Positions 39,164 through 61,658 of a stretch of 64,000 nt of DNA are shown piece by piece (the first letter of the stretch is position 1; every line of letters begins with the position of its first letter). Position numbers and translations under genes: made by a program. Origin of the DNA: Escherichia phage T4_ev151; the sequence record LR597660. One strand, given 5' to 3'. Below the pieces are notes generated by a model, which was not told the origin of the DNA, did not search any database, and was given only the letters and a program-made list of their open reading frames with translations.

Positions 39164-39634
39164 TTAATCATGTTTCCACACCCCATCGGTATTTGACCAA
39201 AGTCGCTGATTATCTGATCCTCGCCACAGCTTTTTAGTCGGAAGATTTTTCTCATACTTCCCATCAATAATAACATCAACATATTTAAGCATTTCTAGTT
39301 GTTTAATATCTTCAAACTTATATCCTGTCCACAACCAAATGCTTTTATTGGGATAAAGATTTTTTACTGTTTGAACAATGCAATGAATAACATCTCGATT
39401 GTCAGGATAGAGAGGGTCTCCTCCAGTTATAGTCAATCCTTCTATATAATCATTATTCAAACATTCAATTAATTGCTCTAGTGTTTCGCCAGTGAATGGA
39501 ATACCATTTCTAGCATTCCATGTTGATTTATTATAACACCCTTCACATTTATGCAAACAACCTGTAACGAAAAGAACGACCCTGCAACCAGGGCCATTCA
39601 CAAAATCGCAAGGATAAAATCTATCATAATTCAT
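39164..39634 (-). CDS. nrdG: anaerobic ribonucleotide reductase activating protein (radical SAM)
   Basis: 156 aa; Cys cluster CLHKCEGC. Confidence 0.85.
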   Translation of the reverse strand: MNYDRFYPCDFVNGPGCRVVLFVTGCLHKCEGCYNKSTWNARNGIPFTGETLEQLIECLNNDYIEGLTITGGDPLYPDNRDVIHCIVQTVKNLYPNKSIWLWTGYKFEDIKQLEMLKYVDVIIDGKYEKNLPTKKLWRGSDNQRLWSNTDGVWKHD

Positions 39635-41448
39635 TGGTGTTTAACCCTATGCATGATTTCTTTGTTTTTACCGAGATTAAATCCGCGTTCGTTCGGATTT
39701 CCCAAATAACCACATGTTCTTCTTATGGTATTCATCTTTTTAGGATCAGTTTCTCCACAAATAGAACAAACAAATCCGTTTTCAGTAGGAGTCATTTCAT
39801 GGGTACTTCCACATGTAAAACATTTATCTACCGGCATGTTAACACCAAAATAATCTAAATGTTGTGCAGCATAATCCCATACGGCCTCAAGGCCTTTTAA
39901 GTTATTTTTCATATCAGGAAGTTCAACATAAGAAATGTGACCACCTGTCGCAATGAAATGATATGGCGCTTCACGAGAAATCTTTTCAAACGGAGTAATA
40001 TTTTCTTCTACTGAAACATGGAAACTGTTAGTGTACCAACCTTTATCGGTAACATCTTTTACGCTTCCATATTTTTCTGTATCTAGTTTACAGAAGCGAT
40101 AACAAAGGTTTTCAGCAGGAGTCGAATATAAACTAAAAGCAAATCCGGTTCTTTCAGTCCACTGTTTAAGATGAGCATTCATTTTAGTTAAAATTTCCTG
40201 TCCAATATCACGACCGACAAGAATATTCAATTCGTGAATACCAATGTATCCTAAAGACACTGAACTTCTGCCGTTTTTAAATAACTCAATTATATCGTCA
40301 TCAGGTTTAAGACGAACCCCGAATGCACCTTCTTGGTAAAGAATAGGAGCAACAGTCGCTTTAACTCCTTTTAAGGAACTAATTCTACACATCAAAGCTT
40401 CAAAACATAAATCCATTCGTTCATTGAACAATTCAACAAATTTCTGTTCATTGAACTGTGTTCCAATATAAGAATCTAACGCGATGCGAGGAAGATTCAG
40501 TGTTACAACACCAAGATTATTACGTCCATCAAGAATTTCATTACCAGTCGAATCTTTCCATACGCTCAAGAAACTACGGCAACCCATTGGAGAAACAGGA
40601 ACAGATGAACCAGTGATAGCTTTATTGTTCTTAGCTGAAATAATATCAGGATACATCCTTTTGCTTGCACACTCTAGAGCAAGCTGCTTAATATCATAGT
40701 TCGGATCGTCTTTGTAAAGATTAACGCCTTCTTCGACGAACATAACAAGCTTAGGAAAAATAGGAGTTATCCCATCACGACCGAGACCTTTAATACGATT
40801 TTTCAGAATTGCTTTCTGAATCATTCGTTCAGTCCAGTCAGTTCCCGTACCAAATGTAATTGTTACAAAAGGAGTTTGTCCGTTTGAACTAAAGAGAGTA
40901 TTTACTTCATATTCATAAGCTTGGAATGCATCGTATACGTCTTTTTCTGTTTTAGATTGAGCATAATTCAACGCATCGGCGATTTGCCATTTTTCTGCAT
41001 CCTCAATATGTTTTGCATAGGTGCGTTTAACATAAGGAGAAAGTACTTTATCTACATTAGCAAAAGTCGTTCCGCCATATTGGTGAGAAGCAACCTGTGC
41101 AGTAATTTGTGCCATAATTGCAGTAGCAACACCGATTGATTTAGGAGTTTCAATCTGCGCATTACCAAGCTTAAATCCGTTCTCAAGCATTCCTTTTAAA
41201 TCTACTAAACAGCAATTAGTAAATGGAAGAGCAGGGGAATAATCAATATCATGGAAATGGATAATTCCGCTTTCATGCGCTTTCATAATAAAAGACGGGA
41301 CCATATTTTTGGCAATGTGTTTAGACACAATACCAGCCATAAGGTCCCGTTGAGTTGGAAAAACACGAGAATCTTTATTAGCATTCTCGTTTAAAAGGTC
41401 TTTATTAGTTTTATGAATCAATCCTTCAATTTCTTTTTCAATTGTCAT
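39631..41448 (-). CDS. nrdD: anaerobic ribonucleoside-triphosphate reductase
   Basis: 605 aa; C-terminal glycyl radical motif RTCGYLG and Zn ribbon CFTCG...CSICG; continuous frame. Confidence 0.9.
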   Translation of the reverse strand: MTIEKEIEGLIHKTNKDLLNENANKDSRVFPTQRDLMAGIVSKHIAKNMVPSFIMKAHESGIIHFHDIDYSPALPFTNCCLVDLKGMLENGFKLGNAQIETPKSIGVATAIMAQITAQVASHQYGGTTFANVDKVLSPYVKRTYAKHIEDAEKWQIADALNYAQSKTEKDVYDAFQAYEYEVNTLFSSNGQTPFVTITFGTGTDWTERMIQKAILKNRIKGLGRDGITPIFPKLVMFVEEGVNLYKDDPNYDIKQLALECASKRMYPDIISAKNNKAITGSSVPVSPMGCRSFLSVWKDSTGNEILDGRNNLGVVTLNLPRIALDSYIGTQFNEQKFVELFNERMDLCFEALMCRISSLKGVKATVAPILYQEGAFGVRLKPDDDIIELFKNGRSSVSLGYIGIHELNILVGRDIGQEILTKMNAHLKQWTERTGFAFSLYSTPAENLCYRFCKLDTEKYGSVKDVTDKGWYTNSFHVSVEENITPFEKISREAPYHFIATGGHISYVELPDMKNNLKGLEAVWDYAAQHLDYFGVNMPVDKCFTCGSTHEMTPTENGFVCSICGETDPKKMNTIRRTCGYLGNPNERGFNLGKNKEIMHRVKHQ

Positions 41449-43289: not shown

Positions 43290-43549
43290 TTAAAGTATTC
43301 TCGCAATTGGTCAAATCCACCAATATGACTTCCATCAGGAGCAAATACCTGAGGCATTGTTAAGCCGATTTGAGTATCACGACCTAGTTTCGTCAGAAGC
43401 TCAGCGATTTTCTCATCATCAAAAACACCTTTTTCCGGCATAATATTGATAAATTCAAACGGTTGTTTCTTAACAGTCAAAAGACGTTTTGCATTATCGC
43501 AATACACACATTTGTGGATGTTGCTATCATAACCATATACTTTAAACAT
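43286..43549 (-). CDS. nrdC: thioredoxin/glutaredoxin NrdC
   Basis: 87 aa; CVYC active site. Confidence 0.8.
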   Translation of the reverse strand: MFKVYGYDSNIHKCVYCDNAKRLLTVKKQPFEFINIMPEKGVFDDEKIAELLTKLGRDTQIGLTMPQVFAPDGSHIGGFDQLREYFK

Positions 43550-43550
43550 A

Positions 43551-43808
43551 TTATTCCTTAATTCCTAGTACTTGTTTAAAAGTCTCGTCGTAATCAAGAC
43601 TTTGGCCCGTTTGTTCTTTATGTTTGTATATAATATCACTTACTTCTGATAGCATATTTTTATATGAACGAGTTAAAGCAGATTTAAGCACGCTGTATCT
43701 ATCAGGAAATTTACCATGTTCATTATAATAAGCTATTGCTAATTCACGGACTGCCTTTTCAGCAGTCTCCATATATTCTTTACGCTTTGTCATTTTCTTC
43801 TCGGTCAA
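43551..43808 (-). CDS. hypothetical protein
   Basis: 85-aa ORF. Confidence 0.4.
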
Positions 43809-44094
43809 ATCGGTGTTTACAATGGCGACATTTATAACGAAGAATACTAGTCTGCCAATGAATCAATTGAACCTGTTCAGTTCCACATTCAGGGCAATTA
43901 GGAACGTTTTTAGAAGCCCTTTCACGACGTTCAACCATGACCATTACAGAATCCCAATTAACAGGAGGGCTATAATCATCACAACCATAAATCTTTCCAC
44001 GCATTTCCAAATTGTCTTCTTCACCAGCCATAATAATTTTAATTAGACTAGAATTACTTGAAGCTACAATGTCTTCTAATAGACGCTTTTTCAT
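43780..44094 (-). CDS. zinc-ribbon protein
   Basis: 104 aa; CPECG...CRHCKHRF. Confidence 0.45.
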
Positions 44095-45020
44095 TTCAAT
44101 ACCTCAATAGCATTGCGTAAACCATTTGCTTTTGCATTAAGAGCTTTTAACAATTTGGTGTGTTCTGCAATTTGGGCTTCAACTTCAATCAAACGAGCAT
44201 TGAGATATTCGCGTTCTTCGCTCAAGTTATCAACCTTTTCTACTTTAGGCTCTTTTACAACTGTCTTATATGTATTAGGGTTCTTCAGTTTAATTAGAAT
44301 GCGTGAACTGTATAACATTGAACCATTATCTTCGGTTTCGTCATACATTTCCACTACGTCCATCATCTCCACCATCGTGCAGAGTTTATAAGACAACGAA
44401 CGAATAATTTTGTTGTGCTTATTAATTTCTCTAGCTGTCATGGTGCCGAGATTACGTGAGTAATAATAAGGAACCTGGATATTAATTAATACTGATGAAC
44501 CACCTGGCTTGTGTGTTACTTCATCAGCAATAACCCAATCCTTAACATGAACTGTATTTGTACGGTCATCGCCCGCGGTAAATAGTTTACGAGCATGCTT
44601 AAAAAGCATATTCACTTGGTCATTGAATTGACAAGCGAATTTATCAGCAAATTTAGTTTCGGGAATGGTAGATAACCAATCAGCCAAATGGGTCTTTTTA
44701 ACATCGTTAACAATAGTAAATTCAACCAAATCGGTTATAGATGTCGCAGTTTTAATGAATCTCGGCTTCATAAAGTTTTTAATGTTATCGCGAGCTACAG
44801 TAGAAGATAACATACGAGAACGTTTAAACCATTCAAGTAAATTGCCTAACGAATGAGAATAAGCGTTCTGAGTATCTTTACAGATATGATTTTCCTGGCC
44901 AACATACTGAAGGAAATCACGAAGAATATTATTGATTACTGCTCTGTGTCCTATCTGATAATCACGATGTTTAGTAATAAGACTGTCAAAATAATCAATA
45001 TAATGTTTACGAGTTTTCAT
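44091..45020 (-). CDS. coiled-coil-tailed paralog family member 1
   Basis: 309 aa; C-terminal heptad-like [33 protein letters not shown]. Confidence 0.5.
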   Translation of the reverse strand: MKTRKHYIDYFDSLITKHRDYQIGHRAVINNILRDFLQYVGQENHICKDTQNAYSHSLGNLLEWFKRSRMLSSTVARDNIKNFMKPRFIKTATSITDLVEFTIVNDVKKTHLADWLSTIPETKFADKFACQFNDQVNMLFKHARKLFTAGDDRTNTVHVKDWVIADEVTHKPGGSSVLINIQVPYYYSRNLGTMTAREINKHNKIIRSLSYKLCTMVEMMDVVEMYDETEDNGSMLYSSRILIKLKNPNTYKTVVKEPKVEKVDNLSEEREYLNARLIEVEAQIAEHTKLLKALNAKANGLRNAIEVLK

Positions 45021-45074
45021 GTTCTTCTCACTTGGTTAATGGTTTATACTCCGAGCCATCCTTGGCTTTAAATT

Positions 45075-46076
45075 TTACTTAATTAACTGTAAAGCTTGTT
45101 CAAGACGATCCAGGCGATTAACAGATTCTTCCCAAATCCTTTTAGCCTGCTCATATTCTTTCTGTGCTTTATTAGAAATTTCTAGAACTTCTTTATAAGC
45201 TTTTTCTAATGCAATAACTTCTGGACGAATTTCTACCGGTTCAGGTGAATCATCAAGATTATCCATTAGTTCCTCAAGGGTAGTTTCTTCTTTAGGAGTA
45301 TTCACAATTTCATCACATTTTTGTTGGTAAATTTCTTTATCAGTCGGTGAGTACGCACACTTTACTTCACGAAGACTAACTACAATTTTATATCCTTCCC
45401 AACCGCATATATTCTTAAAAGGATAAGTATGAATATTTTCTACCGTTTCCATACAAAGTAATGCAGTCTCTAACTGACGAGTTGTATCACTAGCAATTGA
45501 GAAAAATTTATTAATGTTCTTTTGATTAGCTTCTGGTGTAAAAAATTCGTAATTCACAAAAACAGCTGCTTTATTTTTATCAAGTTCATATTCTTTTATG
45601 ATAATCATATCAGAAGCCAAAGGATGAATTTGACGATAATCGCCATAACATAATTTAGAAGCTGATTTTAGAATTTGCTTCTTGAAAAGTCTAAAATTAC
45701 TAATCCAACGACGAGTAAAAATATTCTCAGGGTCTTCTTTATTATTAAGATGATAAGAATTAACATCACCGAACCAACTGTATCCTACTACATCTTTGGT
45801 TCGTTTAATTTCTTTCCCAAAATTACTAAGAATATCTTGATTAACTAAATATGAAAGAAGACGAGACCCTTTAAAGGTTTCCTTAATATCATCTTTATCT
45901 ACACGACTAGAAATTTTATGAACTTCATGAATAAATTTGCTGGAAGAAACAATACTTGCATCAGTATTGTTGAGCCACTGATTGATAATAGAAAGAACAC
46001 TATTCTGACTAGACATAGGTTTAACTTTATCATCAATAACGCTATTGAATGATTTGATATATTCGTTACGAGTCAT
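45075..46076 (-). CDS. coiled-coil-tailed paralog family member 2
   Basis: start MTRNEY with GAGGA RBS (track start overlaps promoter); RRWISNFRLFKKQILKSASKL shared with member 3. Confidence 0.5.
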   Translation of the reverse strand: MTRNEYIKSFNSVIDDKVKPMSSQNSVLSIINQWLNNTDASIVSSSKFIHEVHKISSRVDKDDIKETFKGSRLLSYLVNQDILSNFGKEIKRTKDVVGYSWFGDVNSYHLNNKEDPENIFTRRWISNFRLFKKQILKSASKLCYGDYRQIHPLASDMIIIKEYELDKNKAAVFVNYEFFTPEANQKNINKFFSIASDTTRQLETALLCMETVENIHTYPFKNICGWEGYKIVVSLREVKCAYSPTDKEIYQQKCDEIVNTPKEETTLEELMDNLDDSPEPVEIRPEVIALEKAYKEVLEISNKAQKEYEQAKRIWEESVNRLDRLEQALQLIK

Positions 46077-46103
46077 ATTAATCTCCTCAGTAGAAAGTAA
46101 GAA

Positions 46104-46133
46104 CATTATACCACATCCTTGTGGCAAAGTAAA
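46104..46133 (-). promoter_or_regulatory. early promoter, near-identical copy of the 2129-2158 promoter
   Basis: attataccacatccttgtggcaaagtaaac. Confidence 0.55.
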
Positions 46134-47156
46134 CTAGTTCAGTGCATTTAGTGCATTGTTCAATTTAGAACGTTGCTTCGTGAGATTTTTGACTTTTTCT
46201 TGAGCTTTTTCTAGCATCTTTTCAGCTTCTAGCACTTCATTAGTTGCTTTAACGAGTTCATCATCTACTGCCTTGATAGACTTCTCAATCGCATCCGCGT
46301 GCCATTTTTCAACAGGTTTAAGACTCGGATTTTCAGTAGGAAGAAAATTCACTTTATTGAATTTCCATGCATCTTTATTACCTGAGCTATACATCCAAAA
46401 TTTAGGATCGTTTGATGAGCAATTAGATAAATTTAAGTTATCTTGCACTTCCTGCTTTTTCTCTTGCGGGACTTCATCCTTTCTCAAAAAATCGTATTTA
46501 AATGAAACGATCATATCAAGTTCATACGTTGTTGTATGTTCCCAATTTCGCTCAAAATGAGGTAAAATCTTAGACTGAACAGCGGCAACAACATCCATAT
46601 ACTTAAATGCTTCTGTCAACTGTGATTTAAGGCATTCACAAATTGAAAGAGAATTTTTTGTATTAGGTTTAAAGCTAATTCGTGCAGTTCTATTATTTTC
46701 TTTTAATGGTCTTACTTCCATCTGAAGAGTATAACCATCAAATTTCAGGTTCTTTAAGTTAATATCAGAGCCTTTTAATCGACTAGCAGTAGACAAAATT
46801 TGCTTTAATTGTCTACGGAACAGAGCAATAAATCTCCATTCAATACGATAATGATTTGGATTGAAAAATCCAGATGATAAATCGACCTTACTTTGACCAA
46901 CGCCTTGAACAAATAGAGGATTTTTATAATCAATAGTTTTACAGAAATCGGTGAGCTGCTCACGAGCAGTCATTTGTGTAATATACCCTGCTTCATTAAA
47001 ATTACGCACCCATTCACTGCTATTCTTATACTTAAAGTGATGAATAGCATGATTAACTTTACCAAGGTCTAAATTATTTTCACACAAAAATGTCATAACA
47101 TCACGAGTATAGCTGGCATTACGAACCATATCTTCAATTTGAGAACGAGTTTTCAT
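46134..47156 (-). CDS. coiled-coil-tailed paralog family member 3
   Basis: 340 aa; RIEWRFIALFRRQLKQILSTASRL; C-terminal coiled coil. Confidence 0.5.
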   Translation of the reverse strand: MKTRSQIEDMVRNASYTRDVMTFLCENNLDLGKVNHAIHHFKYKNSSEWVRNFNEAGYITQMTAREQLTDFCKTIDYKNPLFVQGVGQSKVDLSSGFFNPNHYRIEWRFIALFRRQLKQILSTASRLKGSDINLKNLKFDGYTLQMEVRPLKENNRTARISFKPNTKNSLSICECLKSQLTEAFKYMDVVAAVQSKILPHFERNWEHTTTYELDMIVSFKYDFLRKDEVPQEKKQEVQDNLNLSNCSSNDPKFWMYSSGNKDAWKFNKVNFLPTENPSLKPVEKWHADAIEKSIKAVDDELVKATNEVLEAEKMLEKAQEKVKNLTKQRSKLNNALNALN

Positions 47157-59318: not shown

Positions 59319-59585
59319 TTAGTATTTTTCCTCTGGTTGGAACACTGCGCGACAAGCCCACATACTGGCTTCTTTGAGTTTCGTTTTAGCAATAGTTAAC
59401 TGATCGAGGCTTTCAGCATAATTCTTCGCGAATTCACAGTCTTCGCAATTATCTAGTGCTTCCCAGAATTCATCGTATAAAGCATCAAAGATAAGTCCTA
59501 AACGAACTTCAGCGTCTTTGATAGCATTCACTTTACCGATTTTCTCTTCAGTATGCGGCTTATAACCTTTAATGTCTTCAATCAT
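59319..59585 (-). CDS. small hypothetical protein
   Basis: start MIEDIKGYK with GAGGAAG RBS. Confidence 0.4.
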
Positions 59586-59799
59586 ATTTGACTTCCTCAC
59601 CAGTACATAAATCATATTCAACTAAACGAATAGGTTCATGAATGCCATATCCCTGAACAGAAATTTCTGTCGTAGGATAAATTCCACTAATATCACCCAT
59701 ATTCCACGCTTCATTAAATTGCTGTTCGCCTGAATTACTAAACCATTCTGCGAAAGCATTTAGCACATCTTTAGAACCTTCAATAATTATCTTTGCCAT
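59578..59799 (-). CDS. small hypothetical protein
   Basis: 73-aa ORF. Confidence 0.4.
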   Translation of the reverse strand: MAKIIIEGSKDVLNAFAEWFSNSGEQQFNEAWNMGDISGIYPTTEISVQGYGIHEPIRLVEYDLCTGEEVKYD

Positions 59800-60161
59800 T
59801 ACAGACTCTCAGTAAAGGTACGAGCGATAACGTCGCGCTGCTGTTCCGGAGTCAGAGAGTTAAAGCGAACTGCATAACCTGATACACGGATGGTCAGCTG
59901 CGGATATTTTTCCGGATGCTTAACTGCATCTTCCAGAGTTTCACGACGCAGAACGTTAACGTTCAGGTGCTGACCACCTTCAATTTTAACTGTAGGTTGT
60001 GGCTCAATTTCAATTTCACGGGCATGCAAACCATAGAAAATTTCTGGGTCTACAAAAGAGTCCTCTTTAAAGGTTTTAGAAACAATAATTCGTGCTTGAA
60101 TACCATCTTCAAAATAAATAGTACCTTTATGCGTGCCTTCAAGAATTTGATATGCTTTCAT
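59799..60161 (-). CDS. autonomous glycyl radical cofactor (GrcA/YfiD-like)
   Basis: 120 aa; C-terminal [59 protein letters not shown] is the pyruvate formate-lyase glycyl-radical module. Confidence 0.8.
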
Positions 60162-60168
60162 ATAAACC

Positions 60169-60498
60169 TCAATTAGAAAATAAATTTATCCAAGATTGTT
60201 CTTTAATTAAAAATGGCTCAGAATCATATGCCATTAAACTTTGCGTAATTAATCCTTTAAAAGGTCCATCAATAAATTCCATGGTAAAATATGGAATTTT
60301 ATTCATTAGCCGTGCATTAGGAGCAGTGCACAAAACTCTGCATCCTTTGAATACACCTTTTTGTAATTTGTATTGCTTGGGATAAAATTCGCTTAAAATG
60401 TTGTTATTTGCCAAAATTTCAAAATGATTCACCAATTTATTTTTAATAGTTTTTGGCGAAAAATAAAGATATTCGAAAAGCTGAGTGTCTGTCATCAT
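60169..60498 (-). CDS. hypothetical protein
   Basis: ORF trimmed at ATGA overlap. Confidence 0.35.
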
Positions 60499-61031
60499 TG
60501 CATTCCGATTACGAAAAACTGTGGACGAGTAATACCACCAATACAACATTTAATATTACAGCAGTAGTGTACAGTGTCAATATGGACGCTATAAATCTTA
60601 TCCATATCAGGAGATTTGACAGGCTCATCAATTATATACAAAATTCGCGAAAGCGATAAACCTCTGAACTTGCTTCCTTTATTACCAATAAAACTGCGCA
60701 CAGAATCAGTAAATAAACGAAAACGTATATCATTAGAATAACGCGAAAATTCCTTTTTAATGTTATTTGCAGAAATTTTAGCGTAAGCTGAAGTATTAGA
60801 AAGAACAATAACTGTTCCGCCATCATACAACCAATTAGCGGCAAAATTAGTTACTGCGGTTGATTTACCGGATTGACGTCCACCATCTAGTCGAAGTGTG
60901 CAATACTGCTTAAGTAAGTCTTCAAATGGTGGGATATATTCGTTTTTACAAATTTCTTCTACTCTAGCATCAGAATGGTGTGTAAAAGCATTCATCAGGG
61001 ATAGATAAGGACCAGTTAAAAATGTTCTCAT
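60495..61031 (-). CDS. small P-loop NTPase
   Basis: Walker A GGRQSGKST, Walker B ILYIIDEP; start approximate. Confidence 0.45.
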   Translation of the reverse strand: MRTFLTGPYLSLMNAFTHHSDARVEEICKNEYIPPFEDLLKQYCTLRLDGGRQSGKSTAVTNFAANWLYDGGTVIVLSNTSAYAKISANNIKKEFSRYSNDIRFRLFTDSVRSFIGNKGSKFRGLSLSRILYIIDEPVKSPDMDKIYSVHIDTVHYCCNIKCCIGGITRPQFFVIGMQ

Positions 61032-61184: not shown

Positions 61185-61658
61185 TTATTTGAATGATTTG
61201 ACGTACTGAATAGAGCCTTTGCTATTCACAAAGGCAATTTTACCATTTTTATTATACATGGTAGCAGTACGCTGATAACCATAAGTTTGTTTACCAGATT
61301 GATAACCAACTAATGCAAAATTATCTTCGCCCATTTTATTCTGTTTAGCGCGGATGCGTTCATGGCCATGTGCCATAAGAACCTTAGCATCACCAGTTGC
61401 AATGGATCGACGAGTTTTTTCATCTTCAACTGTATTAACAAAGTCGTCAAATGAATCAAATTTAGCATGAGATTTATTATACAGTTTTCCATCTACTGCA
61501 TAATTATATCCCTGTACATCCATCTCAACTTCTGTACCATCATCCAATACAGCAGTGATTTTTTGACCTTTTTTAAATTTCAAAAGATCAGTAAAAGATT
61601 CAGCAATAATTTGAGAATTAATAGCTGCTTCAGTAATAAATTCTTGATATGTTTTCAT
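61185..61658 (-). CDS. hypothetical protein
   Basis: 157-aa ORF. Confidence 0.45.
   Translation of the reverse strand: MKTYQEFITEAAINSQIIAESFTDLLKFKKGQKITAVLDDGTEVEMDVQGYNYAVDGKLYNKSHAKFDSFDDFVNTVEDEKTRRSIATGDAKVLMAHGHERIRAKQNKMGEDNFALVGYQSGKQTYGYQRTATMYNKNGKIAFVNSKGSIQYVKSFK

Follow-up and report, generated by a model that had tools for sequence, protein, structure and literature searches.

The vs.6 locus and its neighbourhood

The window analysed here, a 64,000-nucleotide stretch of the genome of Escherichia phage T4_ev151 (LR597660), belongs to a Tequatrovirus (T4-like) genome, and a 12-kb stretch of it is 96–97% identical to E. coli Tequatrovirus genomes. The gene under study is vs.6, found at the same position in phages RB68 and T4 and carrying the RefSeq name "autonomous glycyl radical cofactor GrcA". 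The relevant features are the following:

59799..60161, minus strand: vs.6 coding sequence, 120 codons and a stop codon, for a GrcA/YfiD/Y06I-type autonomous glycyl radical cofactor
60167..60170, minus strand: GAGG ribosome-binding site, 5 nt 5′ of the vs.6 ATG, overlapping the TGA stop codon of vs.7 (reading of the sequence)

The original prediction placed a gene at 59799..60161 and left its strand unstated; the gene is real and lies on the minus strand, with the ATG start codon at 60161..60159 and the TAA stop codon at 59801..59799 (ORF list). It stands in a compact, same-strand string of genes: vs.7 has its stop codon 7 nt upstream of vs.6, and the vs.6 stop codon overlaps the start codon of vs.5 in the sequence TAATG. 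The product is a protein of 120 aa and 13.8 kDa, encoded as a stand-alone unit with its own ribosome-binding site, start and stop. Neighbours in the region include regB, vs.1, vs, a gene for a macro-domain protein (tk.4), denV, the T4 lysozyme gene e and nudE.

In T4, the gene for the protein Vs.6/Y06I (NP_049730; UniProt P13316) occupies the same position, flanked by vs.7 and vs.5 and near regB and denV. The protein has the same length of 120 aa and is identical at 119 of the 120 residues; the sole difference is Arg73 here versus His73 in T4, arginine being also the residue of E. coli GrcA. That vs.6 is a named and characterized T4 gene had been overlooked in the original prediction.

Several genes of the string deserve a brief comment. 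The gene vs.5 (59578..59799, minus strand) encodes 73 aa in this phage and most relatives alike, but 58 aa in the T4 reference (L090, 5382..5558), where the C-terminal sequence is unrelated after about residue 17; this suggests that a frameshift in the T4 reference lineage may have altered vs.5. Two genes downstream of vs.6, the gene in the vs.4 position (59319..59621, minus strand) encodes a protein with the Pfam Acb2/Tad1 hairpin domain (E = 1.1e-19). We take the Acb2/Tad1 family to be an anti-CBASS cyclic-nucleotide sponge, which would place an anti-defence gene in the same string as a metabolic spare part. Between denV and the lysozyme gene e, a slot at 61185..61658 (minus strand) holds a single gene for a DUF7412 protein, annotated as the Ip4 internal virion protein in RB68; T4 carries ipII and ipIII at this place, a known variable internal-protein slot.

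A pattern search of the 64-kb window found no MotA-box middle promoter directly upstream of vs.6, and a sigma-70-like site at 60580..60553 is a consensus match only. Over the whole window, MotA-box-like matches (TGCTTYA-N11-13-TANNNT) number 11 against 2.6 expected, a count reached by 0 of 100 shuffled sequences; 8 of the 11 lie on the minus strand, and the set is consistent with T4 middle promoters.

The original prediction also assigned the gene to the same early region as the anaerobic ribonucleotide reductase (RNR) genes, and took this as a sign of adaptation to anaerobic growth. These genes are:

39164..39634, minus strand: nrdG, anaerobic RNR activase, with Pfam Fer4_12 and Radical_SAM matches
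39631..41448, minus strand: nrdD, anaerobic RNR catalytic subunit, with Pfam NRDD (E = 1.7e-171) and Gly_radical matches

They do share the strand of vs.6 and belong to the early RNA class in T4, but they are not adjacent to it, lying about 18.4 kb away. The situation in T4 is similar, with nrdD and nrdG located about 17 kb from vs.6 and likewise transcribed early. The three genes fit a shared low-oxygen theme, not a specific linkage or co-regulation. In the present phage, nrdD is one uninterrupted 605-codon ORF that shares 4 nt with nrdG; the T4 reference has a longer nrdD (43535–46385), and there a homing-endonuclease gene, mobC, lies between nrdG and nrdD. The mobile insertions of T4 thus appear to be absent from this phage.

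Protein family and proposed function

The C-terminal glycyl-radical domain of the pyruvate formate-lyase (PFL) type, described in the original prediction, was correctly recognized: vs.6 matches Pfam Gly_radical PF01228 (E = 2.8e-18; 66.8 bits, cutoff 22.2), and the 29-residue peptide quoted there corresponds to residues 92–120. The best match among solved structures is E. coli YfiD/GrcA (PDB 6owr, E = 8.6e-42), followed by residues 697–759 of E. coli PflB (E = 5e-26). Alignment with these two proteins, which had been named as a check, shows that residues 61–120 of vs.6 are identical to residues 68–127 of GrcA/YfiD at 60 of 60 positions, while residues 58–120 align to residues 697–759 of PflB (formate C-acetyltransferase) with 52 of 63 positions identical, the DNA being 81% identical to pflB. 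The predicted radical site lies within this domain:

59877..59879, minus strand: Gly95 codon GGT, predicted radical glycine in RVSGYAV, aligned to GrcA Gly102 and PflB Gly734

The motif RVSGYAV, on whose conservation the original prediction had made its claim depend, is invariant across 41 aligned phage and bacterial homologues.

Unlike PflB, vs.6 possesses neither the catalytic barrel nor Cys418/Cys419. E. coli GrcA (YfiD, 6owr) is likewise a stand-alone protein of about 14 kDa, with a homologous N-terminal part in addition to the identical 60-residue domain. In structural terms vs.6 is of the GrcA type, being a small stand-alone protein with a motif-bearing Gly_radical domain and a homologous head. 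The NCBIfam GrcA model TIGR04365 covers residues 20–120 with a score of 153.3 bits, which does not reach the equivalog cutoff of 170 because the head is diverged and shorter. The pyruvate formate-lyase model TIGR01255 scores 88.9 bits where the cutoff is 994.2, and is matched at profile positions 680–744 only; as this is far below the cutoff of a family of ~760-aa enzymes, identification of vs.6 as a pyruvate formate-lyase was rejected. Several phage records label vs.6 homologues in precisely this way, which is a misnomer, and the PHROGs family phrog_1209 is listed as "unknown function". A Foldseek search with the vs.6 model retrieved the YfiD NMR structure as the top match (E = 5e-7), and the C-termini of glycyl-radical enzymes superpose on the model at 1–2 Å. 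Matches of residues 25–75 to Pfam Dehydratase_LU and an NCBIfam diol-dehydratase model (E = 0.018 and 0.022), far below the cutoffs, were dismissed as noise.

According to the description of Wagner et al. 2001 (PMID 11444864) given in PMC8683613, E. coli YfiD and T4 Y06I are autonomous glycyl radical cofactors, which in vitro receive the radical from PFL activase and restore activity to PFL cleaved by oxygen at Gly734. They are referred to as the only validated PFL spare parts (PMC8683613). For the E. coli pair, Gly102 of GrcA hands the radical to Cys419 of PflB, and a PflB G734A variant is rescued in vivo by GrcA (PMC12338860). We equate Y06I with vs.6 because the latter is the only GrcA-like gene of T4 in our searches, its product has a mass of 13.8 kDa, and RefSeq gives it the GrcA name.

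We consider this ortholog of T4 vs.6 (Y06I) likely to encode a stand-alone glycyl-radical spare part that restores oxygen-damaged host PFL. The repair of PFL put forward in the original prediction agrees with the in vitro activity that PMC8683613 describes for the T4 protein, from which the present one differs at a single residue. In the infected cell, early transcription would be followed by synthesis of the vs.6 protein. Where oxygen cleaves host PflB at the radical Gly734, vs.6 would bind the damaged enzyme, and its C-terminal domain (residues 61–120) would replace the lost PflB C-terminus. The host activase PflA would then install the radical on Gly95 of vs.6, from which it would pass to Cys419 of PflB, so that pyruvate could again be turned into acetyl-CoA and formate. 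Fermentative energy and acetyl-CoA supply would in this way be sustained in microaerobic, gut-like conditions during phage replication.

That this rescue occurs and matters during infection is inferred. The literature searched contained no infected-cell experiment on the role of vs.6, and we know of none. In a T4 infection the host's genes cease to be expressed and its DNA is broken down, so that any benefit would depend on pre-existing PflB and PflA, and would arise only under low oxygen.

A different role was suggested by Nolan et al. 2006 (PMC1524935), who pointed to nucleotide metabolism, as the Gly_radical domain is also found in NrdD. Put in terms of the present locus, vs.6 could act as a spare part or regulator for the NrdG-activated phage NrdD rather than for host PFL, and both NrdD and NrdG are indeed encoded in the same window and transcribed early in T4. 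T4 NrdD is, moreover, oxygen-sensitive at its glycyl radical, Gly580. To serve as a spare part, however, a protein has to reproduce the C-terminus of the enzyme that it targets, and BLASTP of vs.6 against the NrdD of the window finds nothing (E = 3.9). The radical loop of NrdD reads RRTCGYLG (RRTCGYLGNPNERGF) and is followed by an unrelated tail, as against RVSGYAV in vs.6, whose domain follows GrcA at every position and PflB at most of them. The published in vitro work, as far as PMC8683613 describes it, used PFL and PFL activase. As vs.6 shows no sequence mimicry of the C-terminal radical domain of NrdD, the idea of an NrdD spare part was rejected, and we regard a role of this kind as highly improbable.

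Mosaic structure of vs.6 and origin of its 3′ half

The gene consists of two parts of different character:

59799..59983, minus strand: host-identical 3′ block (tail), 185 nt, running from base 2 of codon 60 to the end of the stop codon, encoding the structured glycyl-radical domain
59984..60161, minus strand: phage-type 5′ half (head), codons 1–59 and the first base of codon 60, a diverged homologue of the GrcA N-terminus

When the whole 64 kb was compared with 5,426 complete E. coli genomes (megablast), the tail block was the sole match. In each of these genomes the best match to the tail falls within a band of 95–99% identity; in the best-matching ones it is 98.4% identical to grcA at the DNA level, with three mismatches, all synonymous. 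The 3′ end of the block coincides exactly with the stop codon, and upstream of the block identity drops abruptly to about 45% (gapped alignment with E. coli grcA). The tail starts a few residues after the point where the disordered half of GrcA gives way to the structured one. T4 vs.6 carries the same host-identical block with the same boundary, and a few synonymous differences separate the two genes. Assembly contamination as the source of the block was rejected, since T4 and RB68 have it too, as do hundreds of independent phage genomes.

Base composition and codon usage separate the two halves as well. The tail has a GC content of 0.49 and a GC3 of 0.43, and the head values of 0.34 and 0.19. 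In 61-codon windows over 29 ORFs, the GC3 of the phage has a mean of 0.25 (sd 0.06), and 0.8% of the windows reach the value of the tail. The comparison of codon usage with neighbouring phage genes, proposed in the original prediction, thus yields E. coli-type codons for the tail (Leu CTG 6/6, Pro CCG 3/3) and a phage-like head. Together with the 185 nt of near-identity to E. coli grcA, this strongly supports the host-derived acquisition claimed there; what the claim overlooked is that host identity is limited to the 3′ half, the 5′ half being an old, diverged phage version.

Relative to its counterpart in E. coli GrcA, the head of vs.6 is shorter by 7 residues, AT-rich and written in phage codon usage; when only the heads are compared by BLASTP, they are 33% identical over 39 aa (E = 4e-5). 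Phage and bacterial members share the conserved residues Q5, R24, K29 and D34, and in the AlphaFold2 predictions the beta strands and a short helix follow the same order in both heads (pLDDT ~85–90). The head is an old, diverged grcA homologue, within the family rather than foreign to it, although the genomic context differs, with a string of phage early genes here versus ung-grcA-eamB in E. coli. A phage-specific ordered N-terminal domain was also considered and rejected, as AlphaFold2 gives E. coli GrcA the same ordered beta head.

This small beta domain, predicted for the N-terminal ~50–57 residues in phage and E. coli alike, stands against NMR data reporting residues 1–60 of YfiD as disordered and residues 61–127 as a copy of the PFL C-terminus (PMC8683613). 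The head of GrcA and vs.6 may fold on binding, or the AlphaFold2 prediction may be over-confident. Foldseek searches with the head returned a KOW/SH3-like resemblance that is not significant (E = 0.17–1).

YfiD's N-terminal half aids binding of cleaved PFL and installation of the radical (PMC8683613), and the divergence and shortness of the phage head imply that binding of cleaved PFL may differ from that of YfiD. One could go further and regard vs.6 as an anti-host decoy, which titrates PflA or caps PflB and thereby redirects the flux of pyruvate or SAM, the diverged head changing the outcome after binding. The distance of the head from E. coli GrcA would suit such a function, as would the influence of the YfiD head on activation efficiency (PMC8683613); the head is also conserved among phages, with a dN/dS of about 0.1–0.16, and should thus have some phage-specific function. 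Yet an inert decoy would not need the complete amino-acid conservation seen in the catalytic domain, including Gly95, and in the account of PMC8683613 T4 Y06I is reported to restore PFL activity rather than inhibit it. We consider the decoy very unlikely and retain repair of host PFL as the probable function.

The source of the tail can be narrowed down by comparing the 3′ half among phage and bacteria (DNA identity; dS where available):

the phage tail is 97.8% identical to that of E. coli (dS 0.07), 96.7% to that of another Escherichia species, 91% to that of Citrobacter and 83% to that of Salmonella, while the E. coli sequence is 98.4% identical to that of the other Escherichia species (dS 0.07) and 84.7% to that of Salmonella (dS 0.90).

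The tail of E. coli grcA follows the species tree, which sets the direction of transfer from host to phage and the donor within Escherichia. The boundary between head and tail is identical in Tequatrovirus and Mosigvirus genes. One related lineage in IMG/VR (L103–L106) combines a similar head with an AT-richer tail (GC 0.39–0.42) that carries phage-specific residues (ending ...TKEM) and is only 77–80% identical to any sampled host. The simplest, and in our view most likely, reading of these DNA comparisons is that an Escherichia grcA overwrote the 3′ half of an old phage grcA homologue. Such overwriting may have been confined to the segment where protein conservation had kept enough DNA similarity for recombination. 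T4-type phage DNA is modified, and host DNA is degraded in the course of T4 infection. The resulting 185-nt patch is a clean and tidy example of recent recombination from a host into a virulent phage.

Between T4-type and Mosigvirus-type alleles, synonymous divergence is 0.44–0.55 in the head and 0.09–0.17 in the tail, hence about 4 times lower in the latter (Fisher p about 0.01 for one pair), whereas bacterial grcA lacks such a contrast. Three scenarios fit this pattern: the patch could have arisen after the alleles split and spread by recombination between phages, the tail could have undergone independent conversions, or its conversion by the host could be continuing.

In an extension of the last scenario, repeated recombination with the E. 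coli chromosome would keep the tail close to host grcA, as a form of concerted evolution confined to the 185-nt segment. If this were true, the phage spare part would always fit the PFL of the local host. Tails of Klebsiella phages of the genus Jiaodavirus, with a GC content of 0.55 and Klebsiella/Salmonella-type residues (LLDAVEH), together with the lower synonymous divergence of the tail relative to the head, are hints of repeated conversion by the host. Their best sampled host match is 86–88% identical; K. pneumoniae grcA lies outside the 80 genome loci and the top 120 protein matches. However, none of the phage tails compared finds a 100% match among the 5,426 E. coli genomes, some phage-specific differences in the tail are common to several phage lineages, and among the 80 IMG/VR loci there is no other phage lineage with a tail more than 91% identical to a sampled host. 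These observations argue against very recent or continuing conversion, and we consider concerted evolution of the tail rather unlikely. No account of the DNA mosaic was found in the literature searched, which did not reach the main T4 genome papers.

Two other groups of loci came up in these comparisons. On a 19-kb "viral" contig (L125, IMGVR_UViG_2706794630_000006) there is a GrcA-like gene that in its 3′ half shows 91% identity to Yersinia grcA. Its tail is of bacterial type and its N-terminus long and unusual; it may belong to a bacterial fragment or one flanking a prophage, and not be a phage gene. Loci L165–L175 resemble the 3′ ends of pflB in short "viral" contigs.

Selection, distribution and annotation

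Seven other T4-like phages of E. coli were compared: the tail carries no nonsynonymous changes in six of them, and T4 has one (R73H). Together with the low dN/dS of the head, this pattern of substitutions points to purifying selection, which supports a real function of vs.6.

It bears directly on the view that vs.6 is a functionally neutral passenger, a recombined host fragment persisting with no benefit to the phage. Such a view could invoke the 3′ half as a recent host-derived patch and the surrounding T4 region, in which many genes are dispensable in the laboratory. A passenger, however, would hardly be expected to keep an intact ORF with a ribosome-binding site and operon-like spacing, a tail free of amino-acid changes in nearly all of the phages compared, and a head under purifying selection. 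Neither would it be expected to have homologues in T4-like, T5-like and jumbo phages alike. In T4 infection, vs.6 RNA falls into the early class and the protein is detected (PMC9697503), which also speaks against mere carriage. We give the neutral passenger very little credence, comparable to that of the NrdD spare part, and favour a maintained gene acting on host PFL.

Database searches returned 1,543 phage records with a match to vs.6, full length in 899 of them. The gene had been reported as present in six of six T4-like genomes in 2006 (PMC1524935).

The vs.6 gene is already known, and its identification here is a correct rediscovery with no new biology. It represents a classic case in which a metabolic repair part of host type is carried by a virulent phage, and the corresponding annotation is already in RefSeq. 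The practical points concern other resources, as the PHROGs entry still states no function and many phage records remain mislabelled as pyruvate formate-lyase.
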